Sequence record: OR670491
Reading direction: 5' to 3' (one strand)
DNA: 64,000 nt
Source of the DNA: Escherichia phage vB_EcoM_JNE01
Made by a program: the position numbers and the translations under genes. Positions within the stretch are counted from its first letter, which is position 1; each line of letters begins with the position of its first letter. Below are positions 9,537 through 63,815 of the stretch, in pieces. The notes below the pieces were generated by a model. It did no database searches. It had not been told where the DNA came from and was given only the letters and a program-made list of their open reading frames with translations.

Positions 9537-9575
9537 ATAGTTCCCTCCATTTTGGGTTATTAAAATACCATGTTT

Positions 9576-9592
9576 ATGTTTATATATTTAGT
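9576..9592 (-). promoter_or_regulatory. putative late promoter of fiber A (CTAAATATATAAAC)
   Basis: Minus strand reads AACTAAATATATAAACA 40-50 nt upstream of ATG; same block found upstream of fiber B. Confidence 0.4.
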
Positions 9593-9629
9593 TGAATTAA
9601 TTGTTTTGGAACTCTCAAAGATAATTATT

Positions 9630-9663
9630 TAGGGAAAAGAAAAAGCCAACACGAGGTTGGCTT
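9630..9663 (-). terminator. intrinsic terminator after fiber B
   Basis: AGCCAAC-loop-GTTGGCT hairpin; minus strand then TTTTTCTTTT. Confidence 0.6.
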
Positions 9664-9674
9664 TCTTTTATTTG

Positions 9675-12600
9675 TTATACACGTTGAGCAATGAAGGTAT
9701 CAAATACAGTACTGAAACCATCATAAACAACTTGAATGATACTAACTTGGTTCACAACTGAACTTACCTGACCAGATACAACTGCGTATTCAGCAGGGAT
9801 AGTTAGAACAGCATCACTAACAGTTGGTGTTACGTAAATGTATACAGAACACGCTTCACCGCTACCGATTAGACCAGTAATTGGTGCTAGGGTAGTGTTT
9901 TGGTCAAGAGTTAGACGATATACGTTACTAGAACCATCTGGAGTCCATGTACCGGATACAGAAGCGGTAGAAGCTACTACTGAAGTTGGTAGAACAGAGT
10001 ATTTCTTAGTGATTACAGTACTGGTTGTGAAATCAGCATCAGTAGTGTTCAATGCACCAGTCACCGTTAGGGCTTTATCAATCACAACGTTCTCTTTGAA
10101 GGTTGCAGTGCCATTAACAGTGATAGTATCAGCGGCAGCATCACCTAGAACAACATTACCATTAGCGGTTAATGTACCAGTAAAGGTTGCAGAACCAGTT
10201 ACGGCTACACTTGCTAGTGTTGCTAAACCTGTTGTAGTTATGGATGCAGTTGAAATTTCACTTTGAACGCTTAAGTTTTCAGAGAATGTTGCTGCACCTG
10301 TAACGGCTACACCACCATTCAGACTCGCTAGTCCAGTTACTGCAAGGGTAGAGCCGGTTTCTAAACTTCCACCAGTAATTTTACCAGTTGCAGTAATTGT
10401 TGTACCAGCAGAAATTGAAGTCCCCGCATTCACATTGTTGGTTGCAGTTAAAGATTTAACAGCTACATCAGAATCCGCTTGGTTCAATTGTGCGTTTAGT
10501 ACTCCTGTTACTGTGAAGTCACCGTTGGTTACAACGTTACCATTTACGGTTAGGTTGTTGTTTAGTGAACCAGAATCACCAATTGTTGCTGCTTTAGCAA
10601 TCATGGTTGCACCAGAAGTGATGTTACCAACTGCACTAACAGTTGAATCAGCCGCAATTGCGAATGGTTCTAATGTTTGACCGCTTACATCGATATCGGC
10701 GTTAATACCACCATCAACACGTAGTTTACCAGCAATATATGTATCAGGAACAATATGAACTGTTTCTGGTTGAACTGCTAGAGGTGTGCCAACTGTAAAT
10801 GATGTACCAGTTTTCACTGCACCACTTGCGGTTAGATCTGCAACGGTTGTTGCTCCAGTCACACCTAGTGTACCACCAACTGTAGTATTACCAGTAGAAG
10901 ATAAAACTCCTGCCCCGACAGTTCCAGATGCAGTTAATGATGTTGCATTGATGTCTGCTGTTGATATTCCACCACTCAATGTACTCAAACCAGTAACACT
11001 TAAAGTAGTTGATGAAGACAAGCTATTTGCAGAAACATCAGCACCAGTTAGATCCAAACCACCTTGTGGAATCAATGTACCTTCAACTGTTACGTTACCT
11101 TTTGCCACGGTTGCACCAGTTACTTCCAAAGACGCAGCAGTTGCTTTACCAGAGGTAGATAGAGTTGAAACACTTGTTGCACCAGCTTGTACTACACCAA
11201 GAGTTGAGGTTCCAGTAACACCAAGAGTGGTTGTTACGGATGCACTTGATAGGGTACTTGCCCCAGCAGTTAGCCCAGCAAGAGATGTTGTACCAGTTAC
11301 GCCTAGTGTACCACCAACGGTAGTATTACCAGAGATTACAGGAGCACCAGTAATTACCCCAGTTGTTAGTACTAAATCAGCACCAACAGTTGTGTTTCCA
11401 GTACTTGCTAGTGTTGCAGCTTGTAGGTTTGTACCACTTAGGTCAAATGTACCATCAACTGTTAAATTACCTGCAACGTGTGCATTACCAAGAGAGTTAA
11501 GTGACTTAACAGAAACATCAGTAGTGCTTAGATCAATTGCACCAGCAGTTAAAGTACCAGATGCATGGAAATCACCAGTAACATTTGTGGATTTTGAAAT
11601 TTCAACTGTTGCACCAGGAGCCGTGAAGGATGCACCACTAATTGCACCAGTTGCCGCTACAGAACTAGCATCAATTGCAGTTGCAGATACAGCAGCAAGG
11701 GTAGAAGCACCAACAACATCAAGTGAGCCAGAAGCAGAAATATTACTTGTATTAATATTAGCTACAGTACTTTCCCCAGATACATTCAATGTTGTTGCTT
11801 TTGCTGCACCTAATGTACTATCGGTTGAAGATAGTTTAGGGAATGTATTGGTTTTTAATGCATCAGTACTAACAAAACTTAATGCAGATACATCTGCACC
11901 ACTTAAATCAACAGTACCTGCAACAGATAGGTTTCCACCGATAGTAGCACCTTCAGTTGTGGTTATTGAGTTAGAAGTTATGTCAACTGAGCTTAGGTCA
12001 AGACCACCTTGCGGGGTAAAGACACCTGTTACGGTTAGGTCTTTAGCTGCTACTACATTACTAGCAAGATTCAATGTTCCCGCACCAGACGCTCCAGCTT
12101 GAACCGTAGGAGTTGTTACAGAAGTTGAAATTGTAGCAGTTGTAGAAGATAAACGTGAACCAGAAACAACACCAGTACTGGTCAATGTTCCAACTTTTGC
12201 AGCACCAGTAGTTGTGATAGTACCACCAGATACATCACCGGAAGCTACTACAGAAGATGCGTTAACAACACCAAAGGTACTTGGGTTAGTTGCAGTAATA
12301 GATTTTGCAGTTACATCAGCAGAACTAAGATCGATAGCACCAGATACAGCAAGAGAACCACCTACGGTTACGTTTCCAGTAGTAGTTAAAGATGCAGCAC
12401 TTACATCAGTAGTACTTAAATCAATCCCACTTGGAGTTAGTGTTCCAGTGATCGTAACATCATTAGCAAATGTAGTATTCCCACTGATAGTTGGAGCAGT
12501 TAGTGAACCAACAGTCGCAGCACCAGTTACTTCTAAAGAACCAGCAGTTGCTTTACCGGACACACCTAGTGAATTACCTAAAGTAACAGCACCAGTTACA

Positions 12601-14561
12601 CCTAATGTACCACCAACTGTAGCATTACTCACTACATGAAGACCAGTACCAGATGCACCATTTAGTGTTAGATACCCTGCCGATGCTGCACCAGATATAG
12701 TTGCTGAACTTGCATTAACAGCAGCCAATGTGGTTTCACCAGCAACACTTAGTGTTGTTGTTACATCAACTTTATTAGGAGCAATATCAAGGCCATCTAC
12801 GTCGGCTACGGCGGTTACACCAGTTGTGGTTCCAGTTACTACTAGATCCTTAACAGTTACTGTTTGGCCTTGTACGGTTACATTACCATCTAAAATACTA
12901 TCTCCAGTTACACCTAATGTTCCACCAAGAGACGTTCCACCTGTGACTTCTAGATAGCCAGCAGTGGTTTTGCCAGTAGAAGTTAATGTTGTTCCCTGAA
13001 TACCAGACGTTGCAGTTACGGAGTTAGGAGTTAGATCCTGCCCACTAACATCAACAGTTAGGCCAGTAACAGTTCCTGTGAATTCTACATCACCTAGAAC
13101 CGATTTACCAGCAACAGAAAGTTGTGGAGTTCCTGGAGCTTGAGTAGCGTTACCAGCGATTTCTAGATAATCTAGTTTGTTTAGACCTTTACCTGTGATA
13201 CCATATGTTGCTAGTGAAGCATCACCAAAGGTTGCAGTTTTCTGAACAGTTAATGTAGCAGGAGACATTAATTCAGATTGAATTTCGTTCTGTAGAAGAA
13301 CAGTTGGGCGTTGACCAACGGCAGTATAAGCAAAACCAACTTTGGTATCAGCACTTGCAGATGCTGGACCTAGGTTTAGTGCTTTAATATTTGCAGTAGT
13401 GTTAGTACCACTGATATTACCACCTAGAGTTACAGAACCTTCAAGACTAGTTAGGCCAGATACTTTTAGTGTTTGTGCTTCGATATCACCTAAACTGAAT
13501 GTACCACCAAGAACACCACTTACGTTAATGTTATTGAAGTTTGCAGTGCCAGTACTTTCAATATTAGGAATAGTAGCAGAACCAGTTACTTCGAAATCAG
13601 TTACTTTAGTTAAACCTTTAGTAACTTCAAGTAAAGGGGTAGCTGGTGATTGAACTGCGTTACCACTAATAGTTACATAATCTAATTTGTTTAGACCATT
13701 ACCAGTGATACCAAAAGTACTTAAAGATGCATCACCAAAAGTAGCAGACTTAAGAACAGTTAGGGATGCTGGAGACATTAGCTCGGACTGAATTTCGTTT
13801 TGTAGAATTACAGTTGGGCGTTGGCCTGGTGCGGTATAAGTGAAGCTTAAACGGTAAGCACTGCTTGCGGAGTTAGCACCGATTTTGACATCTTTAAATG
13901 TTGCAGTTGTGTTGATACCAGTGATGTTCGCACCTAGAGTAACAGCACCCTGTAGGCTACTTTGACCAGACACAGTTAGGGTAGTTGCGTTTACATCAGA
14001 AAGACTGAATGCACCACCTAGTGTACCACTTATGGTAACATCGTTAAAGCTGGCTGTACCAGTACTATTAATGTCGGTTGCATTTAAAGTTGCAATAGTT
14101 GCTTCGTTTGCAGATAGTTTATCAAATGCAGCAGTAGTTCCTGCGTCAGCATTAATATTACCTTTAAAAGTTGAAATTCCATCAACTGATAGTGAGTCAA
14201 CAGATGTTGCTTTCAAATCAACATTACCAGCAGTTTGACGAATATTACCACCAAATGAAACACCAGAGTTAAAAGTTGCTGCGGAGTTAATTGTAGCAGT
14301 ATCAGTACCTGGTGCTACTGCACCAATCACAGTGCTACCTACCACTTCAACACCACCATTAAGAGATGCTTTACCAGCTACATCTAGGGTAGAAGTGATA
14401 TTAGCAGTTGCTGCTTCAATTGCAGTGAATGTAGCATTTGCAAAAGAAACTGTACCATTTACGGTAAGATTCTTATTGAATACTGCATCACCTTTAACTA
14501 ATAGATCTTTACCGACTACAGCACCACCAGTAATATCTAGATCAGTTTTAATCGAGTACAT
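9675..14561 (-). CDS. giant tail fiber protein B (1628 aa), paralog of fiber A
   Basis: N-terminal ~80 aa and C-terminal ~60 aa nearly identical in pattern to fiber A; two tandem ~170-aa repeats; GGAGGG RBS. Confidence 0.8.
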   Translation of the reverse strand: MYSIKTDLDITGGAVVGKDLLVKGDAVFNKNLTVNGTVSFANATFTAIEAATANITSTLDVAGKASLNGGVEVVGSTVIGAVAPGTDTATINSAATFNSGVSFGGNIRQTAGNVDLKATSVDSLSVDGISTFKGNINADAGTTAAFDKLSANEATIATLNATDINSTGTASFNDVTISGTLGGAFSLSDVNATTLTVSGQSSLQGAVTLGANITGINTTATFKDVKIGANSASSAYRLSFTYTAPGQRPTVILQNEIQSELMSPASLTVLKSATFGDASLSTFGITGNGLNKLDYVTISGNAVQSPATPLLEVTKGLTKVTDFEVTGSATIPNIESTGTANFNNINVSGVLGGTFSLGDIEAQTLKVSGLTSLEGSVTLGGNISGTNTTANIKALNLGPASASADTKVGFAYTAVGQRPTVLLQNEIQSELMSPATLTVQKTATFGDASLATYGITGKGLNKLDYLEIAGNATQAPGTPQLSVAGKSVLGDVEFTGTVTGLTVDVSGQDLTPNSVTATSGIQGTTLTSTGKTTAGYLEVTGGTSLGGTLGVTGDSILDGNVTVQGQTVTVKDLVVTGTTTGVTAVADVDGLDIAPNKVDVTTTLSVAGETTLAAVNASSATISGAASAGYLTLNGASGTGLHVVSNATVGGTLGVTGAVTLGNSLGVSGKATAGSLEVTGAATVGSLTAPTISGNTTFANDVTITGTLTPSGIDLSTTDVSAASLTTTGNVTVGGSLAVSGAIDLSSADVTAKSITATNPSTFGVVNASSVVASGDVSGGTITTTGAAKVGTLTSTGVVSGSRLSSTTATISTSVTTPTVQAGASGAGTLNLASNVVAAKDLTVTGVFTPQGGLDLSSVDITSNSITTTEGATIGGNLSVAGTVDLSGADVSALSFVSTDALKTNTFPKLSSTDSTLGAAKATTLNVSGESTVANINTSNISASGSLDVVGASTLAAVSATAIDASSVAATGAISGASFTAPGATVEISKSTNVTGDFHASGTLTAGAIDLSTTDVSVKSLNSLGNAHVAGNLTVDGTFDLSGTNLQAATLASTGNTTVGADLVLTTGVITGAPVISGNTTVGGTLGVTGTTSLAGLTAGASTLSSASVTTTLGVTGTSTLGVVQAGATSVSTLSTSGKATAASLEVTGATVAKGNVTVEGTLIPQGGLDLTGADVSANSLSSSTTLSVTGLSTLSGGISTADINATSLTASGTVGAGVLSSTGNTTVGGTLGVTGATTVADLTASGAVKTGTSFTVGTPLAVQPETVHIVPDTYIAGKLRVDGGINADIDVSGQTLEPFAIAADSTVSAVGNITSGATMIAKAATIGDSGSLNNNLTVNGNVVTNGDFTVTGVLNAQLNQADSDVAVKSLTATNNVNAGTSISAGTTITATGKITGGSLETGSTLAVTGLASLNGGVAVTGAATFSENLSVQSEISTASITTTGLATLASVAVTGSATFTGTLTANGNVVLGDAAADTITVNGTATFKENVVIDKALTVTGALNTTDADFTTSTVITKKYSVLPTSVVASTASVSGTWTPDGSSNVYRLTLDQNTTLAPITGLIGSGEACSVYIYVTPTVSDAVLTIPAEYAVVSGQVSSVVNQVSIIQVVYDGFSTVFDTFIAQRV
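13060..14066. repeat. two tandem ~505-bp coding repeats inside fiber B, homologous to the fiber A repeats
   Basis: TCTAATTTGTTTAGACC recurs about 505 bp apart (near 13170 and 13680); stretches such as GGAATAGTAGCAGAACCAGTTACTTCGAAATCAGTTACTTTAGTTAAACC are shared with fiber A around 8530-8600. Confidence 0.75.
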
Positions 14562-14612
14562 TTAGTTCCCTCCATTTGAATGATTATAAACATAACCATT
14601 CTCGTTAATATG

Positions 14613-14623
14613 TATATATTTAG
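14613..14623 (-). promoter_or_regulatory. putative late promoter of fiber B (CTAAATATATA)
   Basis: Minus strand AAACTAAATATATACAT about 55 nt upstream of ATG; leader ends in the same AAATGGAGGGAACT RBS block as fiber A. Confidence 0.4.
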
Positions 14624-14633
14624 TTTATGATAT

Positions 14634-14665
14634 AAAAAAACCAGACCTGATACTAAAGGTCTGGT
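14634..14665 (-). terminator. intrinsic terminator after the 298-aa fiber/spike gene
   Basis: CCAGACC-loop-GGTCTGG hairpin followed on minus strand by TTTTTTT. Confidence 0.65.
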
Positions 14666-48258: not shown

Positions 48259-48312
48259 ACATTGATGGTACAAGGATTGTGCCAATTGGTTTCAAAACAT
48301 GGAGAGTTAATA

Positions 48313-49152
48313 ATGTCAATTAAACCCAAGCGTAAAAAGTATCTCAACAATGCTGATTTGCTTAGAGAAATTCAGAAAAGTAAAATGTCATATTGCTGGT
48401 TGTTAGACAAAAGCTACAGTATGTACGATTACATTGTTTTTGATGAATCTGAAATTACAGCAGAAATGTTGGATAAAGCTAAAGCTGCTCGTATCAAACG
48501 TCTTAACAATGAGATGCTTGATGCAGTACGTGAAAAAGAGGGTATGAGTGCTAAGAAAGCGAAGGAATACGCAGAAGCAAACAATTTAGTACTCACTGAT
48601 GTAGCCATTGATGAAGTTGTTATTCGTGTCATCACTGATGAACATATCCAACCGGATACACGAGTGAATTTTGAACCTTTTAAACATTACATTGTTGATG
48701 AAGAAGGTATCCTGTATGAAGTTGCTCGCTCTCACTGGAAAGGTGATTTAGAAGAAGGTGAGTTCTGCTTGACACATGGCAAAATCACAAATGAACTAGG
48801 TAAGATGTTCATCAAACTAGCAGAAGAAATCTCTCACAAATCAAACTATCGTAACTATACGTATCTTGATGAAATGATGGGTGATGCTAGAATACAATTA
48901 GTTAAAAACGCACTACTCTTTAAAGAGAGTATTCTTTATAAGAAAGATAAACCAGCAGTACAGTTGAATCCTTTCTCATATTATACTTCGTTTGTCAACA
49001 ACAGTTTCAGGTCAATCCTGAACAGTGAGAAGAATGTACGTAACATCCGTGATGATCTTCTTGAGATGCATGGTTTTACACCTTCCCATACACGACAAAT
49101 TGAAATTGAAATGAATATGATTGAAAGGAAGAACGAAGATGGCTCTATTTGA
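48313..49152 (+). CDS. 55: gp55-like late-transcription sigma factor
   Basis: MSIKPKRKKYLNNADLLREIQ parallels T4 gp55 N-terminus (KPKYNYVNNKELLQAII); further matches ...KLAEEISHKSNYRNYT... and NPFSYYTSFVNNSF; start moved to ATG with GGAGAG RBS. Confidence 0.8.
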   Translation: MSIKPKRKKYLNNADLLREIQKSKMSYCWLLDKSYSMYDYIVFDESEITAEMLDKAKAARIKRLNNEMLDAVREKEGMSAKKAKEYAEANNLVLTDVAIDEVVIRVITDEHIQPDTRVNFEPFKHYIVDEEGILYEVARSHWKGDLEEGEFCLTHGKITNELGKMFIKLAEEISHKSNYRNYTYLDEMMGDARIQLVKNALLFKESILYKKDKPAVQLNPFSYYTSFVNNSFRSILNSEKNVRNIRDDLLEMHGFTPSHTRQIEIEMNMIERKNEDGSI

Positions 49153-55419: not shown

Positions 55420-57651
55420 ATGGCTATCAATACGAGTGATTACCTTCTTCAGCAGTTGGTTAATCAGAATAAAGATAATAACGATAGTTTAACTGCAATA
55501 AGAGAACTATTGGCTGACAACTTAAAACAGAATTCTAAGAAAAAGACAGGCTCCAGTAGTCCAGGTTCCCCAAGACCAGGTGGTTCCGGTGGACGTGGTG
55601 GTTCAGGAAGCGGTTCCGGTAACAAAAACACTTTCGGAAAAATGTTTAAATCACTATCATCTGAAGTTTCTAACGTAAGTAAAACAATGATGAACAGTAG
55701 TGCGAACGTAAGCACTGTAGTGAACTCATTAGGTATGAGTGCATCATCAGCAGCCGGAGCATTAACAATGATTCCTGGCCCGATTGGTGTAGCTGCAACT
55801 GCATTTAAAATGGTAGCTGACGTAGGAATGGCAGTATACAACGTCCTGAACGCACAATTAGAAGTCTACACTAAAATTAACAGTGCAGGTGTTGCATTGG
55901 CTGAAGGTTATGGTTCAGTACTGAAAGGTGCTGGTGCGTCAATGATGAGTGTTGACAACTTTGCTGCGGCATTACAAACACACAGTGCTGTTGTTGCACA
56001 GTTGGATGGGGTTTATGGGGATGGTGTATCATCATTTGGTAAATTATTGGGAAGTGTTCAATTGGCACAAAACCAATTAGGCTTATATGGTGTATCACAA
56101 CAAACTCTAACTGATTTAACTGCACGTAATATTAAATTCCAAAAACAATACGGTGGGGCTGAAATGATTCGTAATATGAATCAGGCTCAAAGTAGTGAAC
56201 AGTTTATTACTACATTAACTAAATTCAGTAAAAGTATAGGTGAATCAGTAGATTCATTATTGAATAAAACAAAGAACTTGGATAAATCTATTGATACTCG
56301 TTCTATGATCATTGCACTTAAAAACTATTCTCATTTACCAAAAGAAACTGCTGCTCTTACATCAAAAGCTTTTAACGAAGCTGCATCTTCAATGGGTGAT
56401 ATGGGCAGTGATTATTTGCGTTTGATTTCTCATAGACTATCAATTGGTGGTATTCCTGATGACCTATTTTCTCCAGTACTGAATGAGGTTGCGGATCTTG
56501 GTGAGTATATGGTTAAGTCTGGGATTACAGATGCTAATGTAATTCGCCAGAAACAAATCGAGTACGTTCGTGCTAACCGTGAAACAATTGAACAAGATAT
56601 TCTTTATCAACGTAGTATCGGTAATGAACAAGCTGCCCTATTTGAAAGTCAATTACTAGACCTAGAAGCAGCAGCGAATGACCCTAAAAATAGCCCAGCA
56701 GATAAACTAACACAATTCACAAACCGCTTTAATATGTGGATTAGTAAAACATTCTCTGAACCATTTAATAAACTCTATGCTGATACACAGAATTCAGTAG
56801 TTGATTACCTTTCTGGTATTGCAGATAGAACTGATGGTGCATGGGAATTCCTATGGGAATTTGCTAAGGATGGTTTCGGATTAATCCCAATTGCTAAAGA
56901 TGCAATAGAATATGTTGATGGCCTAGGTGCAGAATTCTCAACTTGGTTGGATAATTTGGGTTCCGATTTAATGGGTGGCTCATATGATAAGATTTCTAAT
57001 GCGTTTAACTCTTTCATTGATAACCTAGTTGATTTGCCTGGTAAACTTTGGGATTCAGTTTCTGGTTGGTTTGGTGGCGGTGAAAAAGAAAAACCTAAAA
57101 CACAAGAACCATCTGTGGATGTTACCAATAAGTCCCAGTATATAACCACCGAACAGACAACACTAAATAAGATTACAGATTCAGTTATGGGGTTGTTTGA
57201 TTCGATATATACACCATTCAAACAGTGGAATGACGCAAGAACATGGACACCACCTAAGCCAACAGATAAAGAAGCAATGTGGCGTATGGGTGATCTAATC
57301 TCTAGTAATAATGGTAAAAAACCAATATCTACTCCACGTATTGAGAAAACCGAAAACGTGGTTCCAGATGTAGTACTGGAAAGAAAAATGTTTGATAAAT
57401 CAGCTTGGAAGCCCGGTGAAGCACCTTATCAAGCCGAAAAGCCAATTGATTTTGAGTCATTTGTCAATGATCGCAAAGACCTAAATATAACAAACAGGGC
57501 AGACGTACCGCAACTACAAGCTATGGATGAACAGTCAGAGATTTTGAAACGCTTGGCTGATGCATCAGAAGCATCACTGTCAGCCATTCAACAAACAAAT
57601 AACTTCTTGAGAACTATCTCTGAGAACACTCAAGGTGAAAGAAACAGTTAA
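55420..57651 (+). CDS. hypothetical virion protein (743 aa), possible tape-measure or ejected protein
   Basis: Gly/Ser-rich low-complexity N-terminal stretch (GSSSPGSPRPGGSGGRGGSGSGSG), hydrophobic helices, long helical remainder; immediately upstream of and overlapping portal gene. Confidence 0.35.
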   Translation: MAINTSDYLLQQLVNQNKDNNDSLTAIRELLADNLKQNSKKKTGSSSPGSPRPGGSGGRGGSGSGSGNKNTFGKMFKSLSSEVSNVSKTMMNSSANVSTVVNSLGMSASSAAGALTMIPGPIGVAATAFKMVADVGMAVYNVLNAQLEVYTKINSAGVALAEGYGSVLKGAGASMMSVDNFAAALQTHSAVVAQLDGVYGDGVSSFGKLLGSVQLAQNQLGLYGVSQQTLTDLTARNIKFQKQYGGAEMIRNMNQAQSSEQFITTLTKFSKSIGESVDSLLNKTKNLDKSIDTRSMIIALKNYSHLPKETAALTSKAFNEAASSMGDMGSDYLRLISHRLSIGGIPDDLFSPVLNEVADLGEYMVKSGITDANVIRQKQIEYVRANRETIEQDILYQRSIGNEQAALFESQLLDLEAAANDPKNSPADKLTQFTNRFNMWISKTFSEPFNKLYADTQNSVVDYLSGIADRTDGAWEFLWEFAKDGFGLIPIAKDAIEYVDGLGAEFSTWLDNLGSDLMGGSYDKISNAFNSFIDNLVDLPGKLWDSVSGWFGGGEKEKPKTQEPSVDVTNKSQYITTEQTTLNKITDSVMGLFDSIYTPFKQWNDARTWTPPKPTDKEAMWRMGDLISSNNGKKPISTPRIEKTENVVPDVVLERKMFDKSAWKPGEAPYQAEKPIDFESFVNDRKDLNITNRADVPQLQAMDEQSEILKRLADASEASLSAIQQTNNFLRTISENTQGERNS

Positions 57652-57661
57652 GGACATAATA

Positions 57662-59398
57662 ATGAGTTGGAAACGACATATGACAGTTGGGAGATCGAAA
57701 CTTTCGAAAACCCCAAATCAGTCCAGTAATAGCAATAAAACTACAGGTTCAAAGTCAAATTTCGCTTCGTACCTACCAATAGTTTATAATGGTCTGGCTA
57801 ACCGTACTGATCGTTATAGTCAGTACGACCAAATGGACCAAGATCCTGAAATTAGAACTGCTCTAAACATTATAGCAGACTTCTGTACACAAAGTACTGA
57901 GGATTTTGGTCTACCTTACAAAATTAAATATAAAGACGATATCGGTGATACCGAAGTCACTACCATTGAAGACCGTCTTGATGCTTGGACAGAACAAAAC
58001 GACTTCAAAACCAGAATGTATGAAATTGTTCGTGGCCTTTTAAAATACGGCGACCAATTCTTTATTCGTGACCCTGAAACATATGACTGGTACTGGGTAA
58101 GCCCACAAAACGTTGAACAAGTATTTGTCAACGAGGCAACAGGCAAAACCCCAGTTATCTATTATATTCGTGACGTATCATTGAATCTAAAAGATAAAGT
58201 CTTTAGTAACCTTCAAGTTGGTTTTGACAAAACAGCATATCCTGGTGGCATCCCATCTACTCTAGGTGGCGGCGGTGCAGTAGCAGCAGGTGGTGCTTCC
58301 GGCTTCACTAACCAAGGAAATACCTCCGACCCATTCAGTACTAACGGTCGTATGGATGTTATCCCAGTTGGTGCAGAACACGTCATTCACCTAACACTAA
58401 ATACAGGACAAGATGGCGTTTGGCCTTTTGGTTCTAGTATACTCGAAGATGTCTTTAAAGTATATAAACAAAAAGAGCTACTCGAAGATAGTATCATTAT
58501 CTATCGTGTTCAGCGTGCTCCAGAACGTCGCGTATTTAAAATTGACTGCGGTGATATGCAAACACACCAAGCTATGGCTTATGTAGAACGCTTCAAAAAT
58601 GAAATACACCAACGCCGTATACCTTCTAATAAAGGTGGCAGTACTTCACTAATGGATGCAGCATATAACCCACTAAGTATTCTAGAAGATTACTTTTTCC
58701 CACAAACTTCAGAAGGTCGTGGTTCAGATGTTCAAACCCTACCTGGTGGTGATAACTTAGGTCAGATTGATGACTTACGTTACTTTAATAATAAATTAGT
58801 TCGTGGCCTACAAATCCCAGCATCATACCTTCCACAAGGTCCAGATGATGGCGGTGTTTCAATGTTTGGTGACGGTGCAACACAAGCAATGGCAAGTGAA
58901 CTTCGTTTTAATAACCAATGTATGCGTTATCAACGTTTAGTACAAAAAGTATTTGATAGTGAATTTAAACGTTTTATGGTTAAAAATGGATACAACATTA
59001 GTACTTCTTCTTTTGAAGTAATTATGAATCCACCAATGAACCTAGCATCTTACCGTAAAGCAGAACTAGATGCAAAACTAATTAACACTTACATGCCATT
59101 GAATGATCTACCTTATATGTCTAAACAGACTATTCTTAAGAAAATGGGCTTCTCCCAAGCTGATATTGTTGAAAACGAACAATTGTGGCTACAAGAAAAC
59201 CCTCAAGACGGTAGTAATCAACCGACTTCAGAAGACGATGCAGCAGGTTTACAATCAGTTGGTATCGACGCTCCAAATGACCCAGGAATGGATTTAGGGT
59301 TGGATGACGAAGGAAACTTGGAAAGTGCTGATGCAGAATACCAAGAACAACAAGGAAGTGCCTCTTTTGACCCGAATAATTTAGGCGATTCTTTTTAA
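57662..59398 (+). CDS. 20: portal vertex protein (gp20-like)
   Basis: IIIYRVQRAPERRVFKIDCGDM...EDYFFPQTSEGRGSDVQTLPGGDNLGQIDDLRYF...PQGPDDGGVSMFGDG parallels T4 gp20 [22 protein letters not shown]...TLPGADNTGNMEDIRWF...QGGVMFDSG; start at MSWKR after AAGGA. Confidence 0.85.
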   Translation: MSWKRHMTVGRSKLSKTPNQSSNSNKTTGSKSNFASYLPIVYNGLANRTDRYSQYDQMDQDPEIRTALNIIADFCTQSTEDFGLPYKIKYKDDIGDTEVTTIEDRLDAWTEQNDFKTRMYEIVRGLLKYGDQFFIRDPETYDWYWVSPQNVEQVFVNEATGKTPVIYYIRDVSLNLKDKVFSNLQVGFDKTAYPGGIPSTLGGGGAVAAGGASGFTNQGNTSDPFSTNGRMDVIPVGAEHVIHLTLNTGQDGVWPFGSSILEDVFKVYKQKELLEDSIIIYRVQRAPERRVFKIDCGDMQTHQAMAYVERFKNEIHQRRIPSNKGGSTSLMDAAYNPLSILEDYFFPQTSEGRGSDVQTLPGGDNLGQIDDLRYFNNKLVRGLQIPASYLPQGPDDGGVSMFGDGATQAMASELRFNNQCMRYQRLVQKVFDSEFKRFMVKNGYNISTSSFEVIMNPPMNLASYRKAELDAKLINTYMPLNDLPYMSKQTILKKMGFSQADIVENEQLWLQENPQDGSNQPTSEDDAAGLQSVGIDAPNDPGMDLGLDDEGNLESADAEYQEQQGSASFDPNNLGDSF

Positions 59399-59472
59399 TA
59401 ATAAATAACAATGTATAAAAATGAGGGTGATTAATTCATCCTCATTATAATGCATTATTCAAAGGAGACGAA

Positions 59473-59700
59473 ATGTTAAAGGACATCTTTGAATCTAGCA
59501 GTGATTCTATGTACGACCCTGAAGATGATCAGAACGTTTATAAAATTACTGATTCTCGTAAACCAAAATTAACATTACAAGTACTGAACAATTTAAGAAA
59601 GTACCGTGAGTTTAAGGCACATGAAGAACAACGACGCAAAGCAGTTGTTGCAGTTGTTTATGCCCCAGCACCCGCTGGAGATGGTTCTGGATTAATGTAA
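59473..59700 (+). CDS. small prohead core-like protein (gp67 position), 75 aa
   Basis: Position between portal and protease as T4 gene 67; AAAGGAGA RBS. Confidence 0.4.
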   Translation: MLKDIFESSSDSMYDPEDDQNVYKITDSRKPKLTLQVLNNLRKYREFKAHEEQRRKAVVAVVYAPAPAGDGSGLM

Positions 59701-59749
59701 ACAAAAATCGCACTTTTTAAAGCGTTTAAAAATGGCGAAATTTTTCAGT

Positions 59750-59758
59750 ACTAAATAA
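59750..59758 (+). promoter_or_regulatory. putative late promoter (CTAAATA) with conserved leader
   Basis: CTAAATAATATCATACT...ACGAATATAA... block nearly identical to the leader upstream of the major capsid gene. Confidence 0.5.
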
Positions 59759-59800
59759 TATCATACTTTATACGAATATAATATATCTATGGAGGATATA

Positions 59801-60643
59801 ATGGCGAATTTAAAACTACTACAAGAAGCAATTGAAGCTTTCGCAAACGGCGAGCAAGATGTTGCAGATAAAAAAATGCGTAAGTACTTTGTTGAGCAAG
59901 CTCAAGAAATTAACAAAGAACTAGAAGAAAGCATGGAAGACGAAGAAGAAATTGAAGTCAAGGATGAAGAAAAACTTGATGAAGATTTCGATGTACAACC
60001 TGATGCTGGCCTAAACTCTGAAATCGAATTCGCTCTAGGTGAAGAAGATGAAAGTGCCGAAGCTGAAGTCGAAGAATTTGGTTCTGAAGACGATGGCGAA
60101 GTTGAAGTTGGTGCTGAAGAAGAAGTTGAAGGTGATGCTGGTGTTCCTTCCGAAGATCAATGGGAATCCATTCAAGATGCTTTCCGTGGCCTACAAGACA
60201 TGTTTGATGAAATCGGTGGCGATGTAGACGTTGACCTAGACTCTGAAGAAGAAGTTGAAGGTGATGTTGAAGAATTTGGTGCTGATGGTGAAGAAGCAGA
60301 AGACGAATTTAGTGATGTTCAATTCGGTGATGAAAAAGTTGGTGAATCTTTCAAACTAAAACCAGTAGCTGGTGTTGATAAGAAAGAAAAAGCTGGTGCT
60401 AACACCAAGTCCCCAGTGGCTGGTCAAGCAAAATCTCCAGTAGCTGGCGTAGAACCAGTTAAATTCGCTAAAGCAACCGAAACTCAAGTTGATGACGATT
60501 TCGAAACCGCTGACACCCTATCTGCTAAGAAAGAAGATATGGCTAAAAATGCTCGTGGTGAAATGAAAGACGTTAAAGCACCTAAAGTTGCCGCTGCTGC
60601 GAAAAGTCGCTCAGTACTACCAAAATCTCAACCAAAAATCTAA
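59801..60643 (+). CDS. highly acidic prohead core / scaffold-associated protein (gp68 position), 280 aa
   Basis: Start at MANLK after GGAGGA; Asp/Glu-rich with internal repeats (EEVEGD, KSPVAG); between gp67-position gene and protease. Confidence 0.5.
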   Translation: MANLKLLQEAIEAFANGEQDVADKKMRKYFVEQAQEINKELEESMEDEEEIEVKDEEKLDEDFDVQPDAGLNSEIEFALGEEDESAEAEVEEFGSEDDGEVEVGAEEEVEGDAGVPSEDQWESIQDAFRGLQDMFDEIGGDVDVDLDSEEEVEGDVEEFGADGEEAEDEFSDVQFGDEKVGESFKLKPVAGVDKKEKAGANTKSPVAGQAKSPVAGVEPVKFAKATETQVDDDFETADTLSAKKEDMAKNARGEMKDVKAPKVAAAAKSRSVLPKSQPKI

Positions 60644-60674: not shown

Positions 60675-61295
60675 ATGAGTATGATTCGTGAATGGTCTTC
60701 ATTCAATGATTCTAATATTGTTCTGGAACATCGTGATAACGGATTTGGCGGTCGTGATTGCTACCTACGTGGTATTGCAATTCAGGCCGACCAAAGAAAC
60801 TTGAACGAGAGAATTTACCCTTTATCTGAAATTACGAAGGCCGTAAATAATATGGGTCAACGTTTAGCTAAAGGGGAAAGCATTCTAGTAGAATGTGACC
60901 ATCCAGAAACATTAACCATTAACCTAGACCGTGTAGCTGCAATGATTACCAAAGTCTGGATGGAAGGTGCTAATGGTATGGCAGAAATCAAATTGCTTGA
61001 TACTGCTCATGGTCAAAATATTCGTAAAATGCTAGAGGCTGGCGTAAAACTTGGTGTCAGTTCACGCGGTTCCGGTAACGTAGATTATAATGGAATAGTT
61101 TCTGATTTTGAAATTATCACTATCGATATTGTTGCTCAACCTAGTGCTCCAGAGGCATACCCAACTGCGGTATTTGAATCTCTAATGAGCAAGTACGGAT
61201 CACCTTGTAATAGTCCTAAAAAAATCAATGAATCTAAAACAGTAAATAATGTAGATTCTGAAATTTACGATTTTTTCAAGAAATTAAAAGGTTAA
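60675..61295 (+). CDS. 21: prohead core protease (gp21-like)
   Basis: ERIYP, GVSSRGSG and IDIVAQPSAPEAY parallel T4 gp21 KRIYP, GVSSRGLG, IDLVSMPSAPDAY. Confidence 0.85.
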   Translation: MSMIREWSSFNDSNIVLEHRDNGFGGRDCYLRGIAIQADQRNLNERIYPLSEITKAVNNMGQRLAKGESILVECDHPETLTINLDRVAAMITKVWMEGANGMAEIKLLDTAHGQNIRKMLEAGVKLGVSSRGSGNVDYNGIVSDFEIITIDIVAQPSAPEAYPTAVFESLMSKYGSPCNSPKKINESKTVNNVDSEIYDFFKKLKG

Positions 61296-61305
61296 CATTT
61301 TAAAA

Positions 61306-61315
61306 ATATAAATAT
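61306..61315 (+). promoter_or_regulatory. late promoter, perfect TATAAATA, overlapping an inverted repeat
   Basis: AAATATAAATATCTGTA; 9-bp inverted repeat ATATCTGTA/TACAGATAT begins inside the promoter. Confidence 0.55.
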
Positions 61316-61362
61316 CTGTATGTTGAAGTACAGATATTTCAGTACTTAAAGGAGAGAACAGG

Positions 61363-62478
61363 ATGTCTAAATTAGAAAAGCTTCTAAAAGAATCATCACT
61401 TTCTGATGAGGCAAAACAGCTAATTCAGGAAGCATGGAATGAAGAAAAGAATACACTTGCCGCAGAAATGCGTGAAGAAATGAAAGGTCGATACAAACAA
61501 GATTTGTCCGAGCTAACCGAAGGTCTAAATACTATGGTTACTCAAGTTATCGCTGAAGAAATGGGTGCAGTATATGATGAGAAAAAACGTCTTGTAGAAG
61601 ACCGTGTAACTCTTCGTAAAACCCTAGGTAATTTCTCTCAGTTCGCAAACTCTGTATTGGCTGAAGAAGTCAAACAACTACGTAAAGAACGTAAACATCT
61701 AAGAGAAAGTATGAGCAAATTTGTTAATTTCTCAAACGGTATCTTAGCTGAAGAACTAAAAGAATTCCACGTGGAAAAACGTCAACTAGTAGAAACTCGC
61801 GTTAAACTACTTGCTGAAGGTTCCCGTCAAATTGCTGAAGCACGTAACAACTTCATCAAACGTACCTCTGAAAGTGCTGCTAAATACATTGCAGAAACAA
61901 CTCAGAAGAACCTATACGCTTTGAAACAAGATCTTGTTGAAGCAAAACAAAATATGTTTGGTCGTAAAATTTTCGAAGCATTTGCTCAAGAATTCCATAT
62001 CAAACAATTTAACGAGAATTCACTTCTACGTTCCCTAACTGAATCAGTTAAGTCTAAAGAAGACGAAATTGCTCAAGTTAAATCTGAACTAAATGAATCT
62101 GTTGCTGCTGTTAAAGCTGCGAAAACCAAACTCCGTATTATGGAAGATACTCAAACCCGTAATGCAATTATGTCCGAGTTGGTGAAGCCACTAAATACTC
62201 AGCAAAAACAAATTATGGAATCCCTTCTAGCTACTTCTCCTACAGAAAAGCTTAAAGACGATTTCAGCAAGTACCATAAGTCAGTACTTAACGGTACTAA
62301 AGTAAATGAATCTGCTACCTCTCGTCAAGCAGTTCAGTCTTCAGCTAAGAAAACTCTTGCCGAAGGTAAAGTAATCACTGGCAACCGTCAGGCTATTGTT
62401 GAAAGCGAAGAAATGACCGCTGACGATATGGCATTCCTAAAAGAACTCGATGTTCTTTCTGGTATCAATAAAAAATAA
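61363..62478 (+). CDS. prohead scaffolding protein (gp22 position), 371 aa
   Basis: Lys/Glu-rich coiled-coil-type sequence between protease and major capsid genes; AAAGGAGAG RBS. Confidence 0.6.
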   Translation: MSKLEKLLKESSLSDEAKQLIQEAWNEEKNTLAAEMREEMKGRYKQDLSELTEGLNTMVTQVIAEEMGAVYDEKKRLVEDRVTLRKTLGNFSQFANSVLAEEVKQLRKERKHLRESMSKFVNFSNGILAEELKEFHVEKRQLVETRVKLLAEGSRQIAEARNNFIKRTSESAAKYIAETTQKNLYALKQDLVEAKQNMFGRKIFEAFAQEFHIKQFNENSLLRSLTESVKSKEDEIAQVKSELNESVAAVKAAKTKLRIMEDTQTRNAIMSELVKPLNTQQKQIMESLLATSPTEKLKDDFSKYHKSVLNGTKVNESATSRQAVQSSAKKTLAEGKVITGNRQAIVESEEMTADDMAFLKELDVLSGINKK

Positions 62479-62515
62479 ACATTTTAAAGCATTTTAATAA
62501 TCAATCTTTTCAGTT

Positions 62516-62525
62516 CTATAAATAA
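62516..62525 (+). promoter_or_regulatory. late promoter, perfect TATAAATA, for major capsid gene
   Basis: TTCTATAAATAATATCATACT... about 45 nt upstream of ATG 62570; AAGGAGAT RBS. Confidence 0.6.
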
Positions 62526-62569
62526 TATCATACTGAAAAACGAATATAACATCTTTAAGGAGATATACA

Positions 62570-63745
62570 ATGTCACAACTACTAAATGAATCCAAATGGG
62601 TAGCAGTTAAAGAGAAACTAGTTGAAGGTCTACAAGGTACTCGTAAGTCCGTAATGGAAACCGTACTTGATAACCATCGTAAACTAATGCTTAACGAATC
62701 TGCTACTTCTGGTGCAACCACCGCTGGTAACATCGCTACTCTAAACAAAGTGATTCTACCAATTATGCGTCGTGTAATGCCTACCGTAATCGCTAACGAA
62801 ATCATCGGTGTTCAGCCAATGACTGGCCCAGTTGGTCAGATCCACACCCTACGTGTTCAATATGCTGACAACGCTCCTGGTGTTATCGCTGGTGAAGAAA
62901 TGCTTTCTCCATACAAAATCGCTAAAGCGTATTCTGGTGAACTAAACGCTGACAACAGCAACCCACAAGCTGCTCCTACTAGCCAACTAGAAGGTACTAT
63001 GGGTCGTCGCGTTAACATCCGTATCCTACGTGAAACTGTTGAAGCGAAATCTCGTCGTCTATCTGCACGTTGGACTGTTGAATCTGCACAAGATGCTCAA
63101 TCCCAACATGGTATCGATGTTGAAGCTGAACTAATGGCTGCTATCGCTCAAGAAGTTACCGTTGAAATCGACCAAGAGCTACTAAGCCGTCTACGTGCAC
63201 TACCTGGTGCTGCTGCTGTAACTTATGACCAATCTAAAGTTACTGGTGTTGCTACCTTCGTTGGTGACGAACACGCCGCTCTAGCTACTCTAATCAACCG
63301 TCAAGCGAACGAAGTTGCTCGTCGTACCAAACGTGGTGCTGCGAACTGGGCTGTTGTTTCTCCAACCGCTCTAACCATTCTACAGTCTGCAACTACTTCT
63401 AGTTTTGCACGTACTACTGAAGGTACTTTCGAAGCTCCAACTAACGTTAAATTTGTTGGTACTCTAAACAGTACTATGCGTATTTTTGTAGACACTTACG
63501 CCAGCGATGTCGAGGACATTTTGATTGGTTATAAAGGTAATGCAGAAACTGATGCTGGTGTATTCTACTGCCCATACATCCCACTAATGGCATCTGGTAC
63601 TGTAATGGACCCTAACACTGGAGAACTCGTTACGACCTTCTTGACACGTTATGGTTACGTTCAACTAACTGACTCAACCAGTTCTTTAGGTAATGCTGCG
63701 GATTACTACAGCAAAATCGCTATCAAAAACGTTACTTTCATGTAA
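62570..63745 (+). CDS. 23: major capsid protein (gp23-like), 391 aa
   Basis: IANEIIGVQPMTGPVGQIHTLRV, VEAKSRRLSARWTVESAQDAQSQHGIDVEAEL and VFYCPYIPLM parallel T4 gp23 IAFDICGVQPMNSPTGQVFALRA, IEAKSRQLKAAYSIELAQDLRAVHGMDADAEL, IYYAPYVAL. Confidence 0.85.
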   Translation: MSQLLNESKWVAVKEKLVEGLQGTRKSVMETVLDNHRKLMLNESATSGATTAGNIATLNKVILPIMRRVMPTVIANEIIGVQPMTGPVGQIHTLRVQYADNAPGVIAGEEMLSPYKIAKAYSGELNADNSNPQAAPTSQLEGTMGRRVNIRILRETVEAKSRRLSARWTVESAQDAQSQHGIDVEAELMAAIAQEVTVEIDQELLSRLRALPGAAAVTYDQSKVTGVATFVGDEHAALATLINRQANEVARRTKRGAANWAVVSPTALTILQSATTSSFARTTEGTFEAPTNVKFVGTLNSTMRIFVDTYASDVEDILIGYKGNAETDAGVFYCPYIPLMASGTVMDPNTGELVTTFLTRYGYVQLTDSTSSLGNAADYYSKIAIKNVTFM

Positions 63746-63785: not shown

Positions 63786-63815
63786 AATAGGGACTCTTCG
63801 GAGTCCCTTTTCTTT
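63786..63815 (+). terminator. intrinsic terminator after major capsid gene
   Basis: GGGACTC-ttcg-GAGTCCC hairpin followed by TTTTCTTTTG. Confidence 0.7.

Follow-up and report, generated by a model that had tools for sequence, protein, structure and literature searches.

The regions immediately upstream of the gene encoding an acidic virion structural protein and of the major capsid protein gene are paralogous copies of one control segment. They probably trace back to an old duplication that was followed by partial homogenisation, and not to a dedicated translational operator. The original prediction had described a duplicated cassette of about 50 nt in front of these two genes in the window (the whole 64-kb stretch of DNA analysed here). 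The near-identical leaders were both found where it had placed them and their similarity is real; however, the similar segment measures about 100 nt and reaches from the upstream stop codon to the ATG.

Two copies of one control region in the head-gene module

The last 7 kb of the window showed 98.7% identity with Escherichia phage Turkey5 and 86-89% identity with the 121Q/PBECO4 group. On this similarity, the source of the window is assigned to the Asteriusvirus-type jumbo coliphages of the 121Q/PBECO4 group. Asteriusvirus consists of ~350-kb jumbo myoviruses that are kin of RaK2, GAP32, and CBB. A T4-like head module lies on the + strand of the window and contains the genes for the portal (57635-59398), a 75-aa product (59473-59700), the acidic virion structural protein (59801-60643; 280 aa, 30% Asp + Glu), the prohead protease (60675-61295), the scaffold (61363-62478), and the major capsid protein (62570-63745; 391 aa). 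The major capsid protein matched Pfam PF07068 Gp23 (E = 4e-90) and was 98% identical to the major head protein of 121Q. The acidic protein matched PHROG 15696 (E = 8e-104), which is labelled 'virion structural protein', and mass spectrometry of phAPEC6 virions has shown its homologue gp228c to be present (PMC7247149). It had been named an acidic core protein in the prediction. An acidic virion protein it is, but 'core' describes only the position of its gene between those for the portal and the protease, the site occupied in T4 by the prohead-core genes (genes 67/68).

The acidic-gene copy occupies 59701-59800 on the + strand and comprises, in alignment with the capsid copy, a terminator-like hairpin, a T-tract, a late promoter, a leader, and a Shine-Dalgarno sequence. 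The hairpin, located 3' of the 75-aa gene (59708-59738), had a predicted energy of -7.9 kcal/mol (RNAfold, z = -1.4). It carries TTTTTAAAGC in its loop (59714-59723) and is followed by the T-tract at 59741-59745. A simple terminator scan did not flag this hairpin; its homologue in phage Munch is annotated as a terminator, and the corresponding stems of Munch, GAP32, and RaK2 are stronger. The late promoter box ACTAAATA (59750-59757, core TAAATA at 59752-59757) has a predicted start near A59763, and the Shine-Dalgarno sequence GGAGG (59791-59795) precedes the ATG of the acidic gene (59801-59803). Two details of the prediction needed correction here: the octamer is ACTAAATA and not the perfect TATAAATA, and the true start, which relatives annotate after GGAGGATATAATG, is at 59801 and not at the upstream in-frame ATG at 59789.

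The capsid copy occupies 62479-62569 on the + strand and, in alignment with the acidic-gene copy, consists of a hairpin remnant, a T-tract, a late promoter, a leader, and a Shine-Dalgarno sequence. In this alignment, TTTTAAAGC at 62482-62490 is the remnant of the terminator-hairpin loop of the acidic-gene copy, from which the stem has gone; 62476-62527 folded at 0 kcal/mol. The late promoter box TATAAATA (62517-62524) is the perfect T4 consensus, with a predicted start near A62530, and is followed by the Shine-Dalgarno sequence AAGGAG (62557-62562) and the ATG of the major capsid gene (62570-62572).

The two copies (59701-59800 and 62479-62569, ~100 nt) were 84% identical over the aligned columns. 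Both contain TTTTAAAGC (59715-59723 and 62482-62490) and the T-tract followed by CAGT (59741-59749 and 62507-62514). The block AAATAATATCATACT, which covers the 3' part of the promoter, the start region, and the first transcribed bases, is identical at 15/15 positions (59753-59767 and 62520-62534), and so is the block ACGAATATAA within the 5'UTR (59772-59781 and 62540-62549). As the original prediction had stated, the conservation goes beyond the promoter octamer: identity was also found in the start region, in the 5'UTR, and in ~45 nt upstream of the promoter, and the alignment of both copies showed that it is not confined to the promoter and the ribosome-binding site (RBS).

The alignment of upstream regions that had been proposed as a check was done as an all-pairs local alignment of the 100 nt upstream of 36 window genes (630 pairs). 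The acidic/capsid pair ranked first with a score of 73, compared with 50 for the runner-up, which consists of the leaders of two paralogous giant genes, and 31 for the 99th percentile. Shuffled sequences gave a mean score of 19.5 (sd 3.3), which places the acidic/capsid pair at z = 16. From the promoter to the ATG, the two copies were 77% identical, versus 31-67% among unrelated late leaders of the window.

The segment is present in two copies per genome. A pattern search allowing ≤3 mismatches found no further match to AAATAATATCATACT with <3 mismatches in the 64-kb window. We also built an nhmmer profile from eight cassette sequences and searched the window and the whole 348-kb genome of 121Q. 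The profile recovered the acidic-gene copy (E = 2.5e-27) and the capsid copy (E = 1.4e-17) in the window and just two copies in 121Q (E = 2e-25 and 1e-16; next match, 0.077). Thus, neither the mismatch pattern searches of the window nor the profile searches of both sequences found a third copy. Among phages, blastn of the cassette matched 36 records, all of them Asteriusvirus-type phages of E. coli or Salmonella, and 34 of these had exactly two cassette places. The cassette had been proposed to serve highly expressed head genes. This part of the prediction is not supported: the tail sheath, tail tube, scaffold, and protease genes have leaders unlike the cassette, which therefore does not mark highly expressed late genes in general.

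We compared the head modules of 14 GenBank relatives and 80 IMG/VR contigs. The gene order between both cassette copies was the same in all relatives examined. Among Asteriusvirus genomes, the intergenic identity was 88-97% for both cassette regions and 93-97% for the capsid copy region, versus 63-89% at the third codon positions of the neighbouring genes; the region before the scaffold gene likewise fell within 88-97%. Since intergenic identity exceeds that at third codon positions, both regions are constrained cis-regulatory DNA. This pattern points to purifying selection on both whole intergenic regions, strongest in the capsid copy.

Predicted late promoters and unstructured leaders

In the window, nTAAATA is found 20-70 nt before the ATG of most structural genes. 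The 121Q genome has 231 copies of TAAATA, versus 600-780 copies of hexamers with the same composition, and 30% of the TAAATA copies lie upstream of SD-ATG-ORFs, versus 4-10% for control hexamers. The avoidance of TAAATA elsewhere in the genome supports its assignment as the promoter core. For CBB and GAP32, ATAAATA has been described in front of structural genes, and these phages, too, have a gp55-like sigma factor (PMC5259590). The window encodes such a protein at 48262-49152 on the + strand (start codon uncertain; PHROG 12791, E = 1e-150; PHROG 234). PHROG 12791 is labelled 'sigma factor for late transcription', and the 121Q homologue is annotated as gp591. This gp55-like sigma factor is presumed to read both promoters.

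The T4 late promoter has a TATA box of 8 bp, which precedes the start by about one helical turn, and an A/T-rich downstream region, lacks a -35 element, and tolerates variants at -13/-12 (PMC2988020). The two promoters studied here resemble T4 late promoters (TATAAATA, e.g. that of gene 23) in the TATA-like 8-bp box, the A/T-rich downstream sequence, and the lack of a -35 element (PMC2988020), and the -13/-12 variants fall within the T4-family tolerance. As in T4, a gp55-like sigma factor is phage-encoded, and within the cluster of head genes a separate late promoter precedes the major capsid gene. Unlike in T4, the conserved core is shorter (nTAAATA), the acidic-gene copy has ACTAAATA, and the CBB analysis did not find homologues of gp33 and gp45 in the phage group (PMC5259590). 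A further difference is that the two promoters share ~100 nt of flanking sequence by descent. To our knowledge, sharing of flanks by descent has not been described for T4 late promoters.

By every sequence-level test applied, both are T4-type late promoters, with predicted activity. A promoter scan predicted no sigma70-type promoter on the + strand between 59300 and 63900. GAATATAAT was considered as a sigma70-type promoter and rejected, because it has no matching -35 element and the + strand scan was empty. Our literature search returned no prior description of the cassette and neither a start-site map nor expression data for this clade; promoter use and start sites are therefore given as predictions. 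Host RNA polymerase carrying the gp55-like sigma factor would read each nTAAATA, ~10 bp before the start, and transcription would begin at the CA ~6 nt downstream of the box, at ~59763 and ~62530. The product would be a 38-40-nt, A/U-rich, unstructured 5'UTR with GGAG(G) 5-7 nt before the ATG.

The predicted leaders folded no better than shuffled sequences (z = -0.1 and +1.1), and a search with the covariance models of Rfam 15 gave no match in either cassette; two chance-level matches (E = 0.3-0.6, far below the gathering scores) lay inside coding sequence. The prediction had suggested a shared cis-regulatory or translational-control element. Its first half agrees with the constraint described above, whereas translational control is not borne out by these unstructured leaders without an Rfam match. 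The flanks of late promoters are T-rich upstream and A-rich downstream, with nothing else in their profile, and ATATCATACT, which belongs to the block AAATAATATCATACT, and ACGAATATAA fall outside this general profile. This extra 5'UTR identity is specific to Asteriusvirus. Every Asteriusvirus genome examined had the block ACGAATATAA unchanged in its capsid leader; ACGAAAAAAC in Munch and GCAAAAAATA in GAP32 stand at the same position of the capsid leader. In the acidic-gene leader, the block varies, reading ACGAATGTAA in 121Q and PBECO4, ATGAATGTAA in Ecwhy_1, and AGGAATTAAA in A4, and other genera have unrelated A/T-rich sequence in its place. This drift speaks against a translational-control element, as do the lack of a capsid copy in distant relatives and the two leaders of other genera, which are barely more alike than unrelated late leaders.

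We consider it quite improbable that the shared 5'UTR blocks (ATATCATACT, ACGAATATAA, and ATCT-N-GGAG-ATAT) form a dedicated cis element, be it a site bound by a factor of the phage or the host or a translational enhancer or operator, for post-transcriptional co-regulation of the two most abundant head proteins. Such an element would account for the identity of the copies throughout the 5'UTR and for a capsid 5'UTR that is near-invariant in Asteriusvirus while third codon positions differ by 11-23%. Short inverted repeats around the Shine-Dalgarno sequence in several lineages (TATATC/GATATA and TTAATT/AATTAA) would also fit. In addition, ACGAATATA occurs in the tail sheath leader, with ~0.04 chance matches expected in late leaders; that motif, however, belongs there to another conserved palindrome, CGAATATTCG, and its genome-wide count equals the expectation from composition. 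Such an element is further disfavoured by the freedom of ACGAATATAA to vary in the acidic-gene leader of close relatives, by its absence from both leaders in other genera, by leaders with neither significant structure nor an Rfam family, and by a profile search that gave no third copy on other abundant late genes.

Two related candidates were rejected. A mini-hairpin with the Shine-Dalgarno sequence in its loop had stems of 3-6 A/U pairs and energies within the range of shuffles. The idea that abundant late mRNAs generally carry ACGAATATA failed on the genome count of the motif and on the other palindrome that contains the sheath copy. The tail sheath is the third very abundant protein, and ACGAATATA in its leader is a weak lead. 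The near-invariance of the whole capsid 5'UTR within Asteriusvirus indicates, at the sequence level, a constraint beyond the promoter and the RBS for which the duplication does not account.

The inverted repeat enclosing the capsid promoter

In the capsid copy only, an inverted repeat, TTTTCAGT-N17-ACTGAAAA, encloses the promoter; the acidic-gene promoter region folded at 0 kcal/mol. Its arms, located by folding, lie at 62507-62514 and 62532-62539 on the + strand. The 5' arm is the former terminator T-tract, and the 3' arm corresponds to about +3 to +10 of the predicted transcript. The enclosing stem has 8 bp in the window and 9 bp at the homologous site of 121Q, where it is longer than the promoter-enclosing stem at any other of 74 TAAATA sites. 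With shuffled flanks, 9-bp stems arose at a frequency of ~0.003 and 8-bp stems at ~0.01. Compensatory variants of the repeat were found in GAP32, CBB, and relatives (TTTTCTGT/ACAGAAAA), in contig L017 (TTTGT/ACAAA), and in RaK2 (CTTTTTCA/TGAAAAAG); contig L020 and Vibrio phage 2.275.O have other stems around the capsid promoter.

Because loop length varies between genera, a single consensus structure was unusable on MAFFT alignments, and the hairpin was scored by per-sequence folding and by stem counts against shuffles. Counts of enclosing pairs against shuffles did not discriminate in this A/T-rich sequence. The mean folding z of the capsid promoters from eight non-redundant lineages was -2.5 (p = 0.004). 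Acidic-gene promoters gave -0.3 in the enterobacterial phages and -0.9 in distant relatives, and the other late promoters of 121Q gave -1.1. Many distant relatives have GGCTGT...ACAGCC around the GTAAATA of the acidic gene. Promoter-enclosing structure as a general property of late promoters was rejected, as the tendency towards it was weak (median z = -0.6; 28% below -2). The capsid inverted repeat, with its compensatory changes in other genera, is the one new feature.

In the T4 genes e, soc, 49, and I-TevI, the late promoter lies inside a hairpin whose 3' arm hides the RBS in read-through transcripts (PMC3014915). The capsid copy resembles these genes in that the arms stand on either side of the late promoter, so that a hairpin could form in read-through RNA and not in promoter-initiated RNA. 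It differs in that the 3' arm does not pair with the Shine-Dalgarno sequence and in that the acidic-gene copy has no repeat. Between the end of the 3' arm (62539) and the GGAG core (62559-62562) lie 19 nt, and the Shine-Dalgarno sequence is left uncovered; it was also essentially free in the fold of the full intergenic RNA. Since the arm stops short of the Shine-Dalgarno sequence, the mechanism is not that of T4 e and soc, and there is no translational masking. As a guess, the hairpin may form in read-through RNA, where it would not terminate transcription but would promote stability or processing of the message; a role of the repeat at the DNA level is also conceivable.

The exact T4 e/soc design (PMC3014915) is found at the tail sheath gene of the phage group, outside the window, where TTGGAGGAT at the RBS is matched by its exact complement, ATCCTCCAA, on the 5' side of TAAATA. 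This anti-SD/SD arrangement is conserved across genera, and the same type of design occurs at position 35043 of 121Q. It is rather unlikely, though worth stating, that the hairpin-enclosed promoters of the capsid gene and of the acidic gene in distant relatives and the anti-SD/SD arrangement of the sheath gene together represent one general device of RaK2-type jumbo phages. Such a device would set the behaviour of read-through RNA apart from that of promoter-initiated RNA; at the capsid gene this would involve processing, stability, or suppression of termination and no masking of the RBS, and it would add a hitherto undescribed variant to the T4 gene e/soc principle.

Origin of the capsid copy and its meaning

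In PA5oct and most of the environmental relatives (~60; capsid protein 63-70% identical), the stop codon of the scaffold gene lies ~20-30 nt from the capsid ATG, without a promoter between them, and a terminator and GTAAATA precede the acidic-type gene. Among the relatives examined, a separate promoter for the capsid gene was confined to contig L020, Vibrio phage 2.275.O, and the enterobacterial clade, which consists of Asteriusvirus, Munch-like phages, Mimasvirus, Eneladusvirus, and Alcyoneusvirus. Since the distant relatives have the promoter before the acidic gene only, it is the copy at the capsid gene that is derived. The capsid copies of Munch and GAP32 retain TTTTTAA.GC and the T-tract of the terminator region and have lost the 3' arm, as would be expected if the whole unit was copied and its stem was lost afterwards.

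From promoter to ATG, the within-genome identity of the two leaders was 0.77 in the window, 0.77 in contig L020, and 0.71 in the Vibrio phage, compared with 0.63-0.69 for cross-genome leader pairs. Outside Asteriusvirus, L020, and the Vibrio phage, within-genome identity was 0.62-0.69 and showed no excess, unrelated late leaders being at 0.31-0.67. The high identity of the leaders is thus lineage-specific; genome-wide concerted evolution of the two leaders was rejected, with support in three lineages only. With so weak an excess elsewhere, the case for a single ancient duplication rests mainly on the upstream homology of TTTTTAA.GC and the T-tract, which are set in A/T-rich sequence of low complexity; the duplication may also have occurred independently in several lineages.

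The similarity could in principle be convergence, in which the regions are not copies and selection for maximal late expression produced the same promoter, start region, leader, and Shine-Dalgarno sequence. The T-rich upstream and A-rich downstream flanks common to the late promoters of the phage are compatible with this, and in most genera the paralogs are hardly closer to each other than unrelated late leaders are. We nevertheless regard it as very unlikely. The shared ATATCATACT and ACGAATATAA lie outside the general late-promoter profile, the very abundant sheath and tube genes did not arrive at the cassette, and an alignment z of 16 would have to be explained. Moreover, the ~45 nt upstream that are alike form a terminator hairpin at the acidic gene but are a remnant without structure at the capsid gene, and a shared function therefore does not explain this upstream similarity.

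PeSLs of T4-like phages (Arbiol et al. 2010; Comeau et al. 2014) are likewise short intergenic composites of a terminator stem-loop and a promoter that spread by copying or recombination; their promoters are early ones, they are numerous in hyperplastic regions, and they are associated with accessory-gene indels (PMC2839356, PMC4122927). That the present cassette is a mobile or recombinogenic element of this kind, whose repeats mediate module exchange or rearrangement, is extremely improbable: the acidic-gene copy is such a composite and was copied at least once, as in the terminator/promoter repeats that mediate indels (PMC2839356, PMC4122927), but there are two copies per genome only, the stem-loop is in the acidic-gene copy only, the promoters are of the late and not the early sigma70 type, the copies flank conserved essential core genes of the head (protease and scaffold) and not variable regions, the genes between them keep their order in all relatives examined, and no gene gain, loss, or rearrangement junction has so far been seen in the cassette.

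Old duplication with later partial homogenisation thus remains the preferred reading, and its steps may be pictured as follows. The ancestor would have had a single late promoter behind a terminator hairpin, driving an acidic protein-protease-scaffold-capsid operon. On the branch from which the enterobacterial and some Vibrio relatives descend, the entire unit of terminator, promoter, and leader would have been copied to a site before the capsid gene, where it would serve as the gene's own booster promoter. In the capsid copy, the terminator stem presumably decayed, and the old T-tract may have become the 5' arm of the new promoter-enclosing hairpin. The extra matches within Asteriusvirus (the ATATC start region and ACGAATATAA) could stem from later local homogenisation, by short-tract gene conversion or by parallel change. 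For ACGAATATAA, a short transfer from the capsid copy to the acidic-gene copy and subsequent drift, with purifying selection mainly on the capsid copy, would be a plausible course; the drift of this block in the acidic-gene copy only fits transfer and drift better than a jointly required motif. A conversion tract of ~10-12 nt would be unusually short, and selection for a shared motif may have contributed instead.

The cassette is no new kind of regulatory element; it is an ordinary regulatory duplication of modest evolutionary interest. It illustrates how a phage operon, by duplicating the control region in front of it, can acquire a second, internal promoter that boosts its most abundant product. 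The example is dated by the presence of the capsid copy in the enterobacterial clade and its absence in PA5oct-like and environmental relatives. For annotators of the poorly characterised 350-kb phages, the analysis offers a tested late-promoter core, nTAAATA, that is strongly avoided elsewhere in the genome. The two near-identical natural leaders, with defined block differences, a hairpin arm, and a terminator stem, may be used to dissect late expression in these phages.

Inverted repeats and hairpins in the head module

An inverted repeat (TTTTCAGT / ACTGAAAA, window 62507-62539) flanks the capsid late promoter on both sides; in other genera, compensatory changes preserve it, and it stops short of the ribosome-binding site of the capsid gene. 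The sister copy of the cassette, located before the acidic protein gene, carries no such promoter-enclosing inverted repeat.

At the scaffold gene, the late promoter (TATAAATA, 61307-61314) shares bases with the 5' arm of a hairpin with an 11-bp stem (AAATATCTGTA, 61310-61320 / TACAGATATTT, 61329-61339). Since transcripts initiated here would be without the greater part of that arm, the hairpin is predicted to be possible only in read-through RNA. This hairpin is followed by TTCAGTAC, as is also seen in the acidic-gene cassette. A TAAATA copy of its own (59402-59407) precedes the 75-aa gene, directly behind the stop codon of the portal gene, and the predicted leader of the 75-aa gene contains an 11-bp hairpin, AATGAGGGTGA / TCATCCTCATT (59420-59446). 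A strong G+C-rich hairpin (AGGGACTCTTCGGAGTCCCT, 63789-63808), with T-runs on both strands, was found 3' of the capsid gene; it looks like a bidirectional terminator that closes the head operon.

Shared and altered upstream regions

ACGAATATA was present in the leaders of three genes for very abundant structural proteins, namely the acidic protein (59772-59781), the capsid (62540-62549), and the tail sheath (262808 of the related Asteriusvirus 121Q; L100:12808). Its genome frequency is at chance level, with ca. 0.04 leader matches expected, and its sharing by these three leaders may be a coincidence.

The second-best pair of upstream regions within the window belonged to two giant repeat-rich paralogous genes on the minus strand (2120 aa, 3174-9536; 1628 aa, 9675-14561), whose leaders are alike (AACTAAATATATA ... 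AAATGGAGGGAACTA, near 9537-9640 and 14562-14665). In Salmonella phage SD-1_S14 (L088:600-690), ca. 27 nt containing the acidic-gene promoter are missing (GGC|TACTTTATACG), and the acidic gene is broken into fragments. This record represents either a natural defective variant or a low-quality assembly.

Anti-SD/SD arrangements around late promoters

In the tail sheath gene leader of 121Q (262750-262853; L100:12750-12853), ATCCTCCAA adjoins the late promoter on its upstream side and is exactly complementary, in reverse orientation, to TTGGAGGAT, which lies at the ribosome-binding site. This complementarity was kept from Asteriusvirus through Mimasvirus-type contigs (L100, L102-L112, and L136-L138). 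The arrangement matches the design of T4 genes e and soc, which silences read-through transcripts. The sheath leader also contains a conserved palindrome, CGAATAT(A)TTCG. A second anti-SD/SD arrangement (CTCCAAGATT ... AATCTTGGAG) surrounds a TAAATA promoter before gene 49 of 121Q (35043; L095:35020-35080).

TAAATA in the whole 121Q genome

TAAATA was depleted ca. 3-fold in the whole 121Q genome (L095-L101), with 231 copies versus 600-780 for matched hexamers. Of the TAAATA copies, 30% were located upstream of SD-ATG-ORFs. This depletion, together with the placement before ORFs, provides a late-promoter signature that is usable genome-wide.
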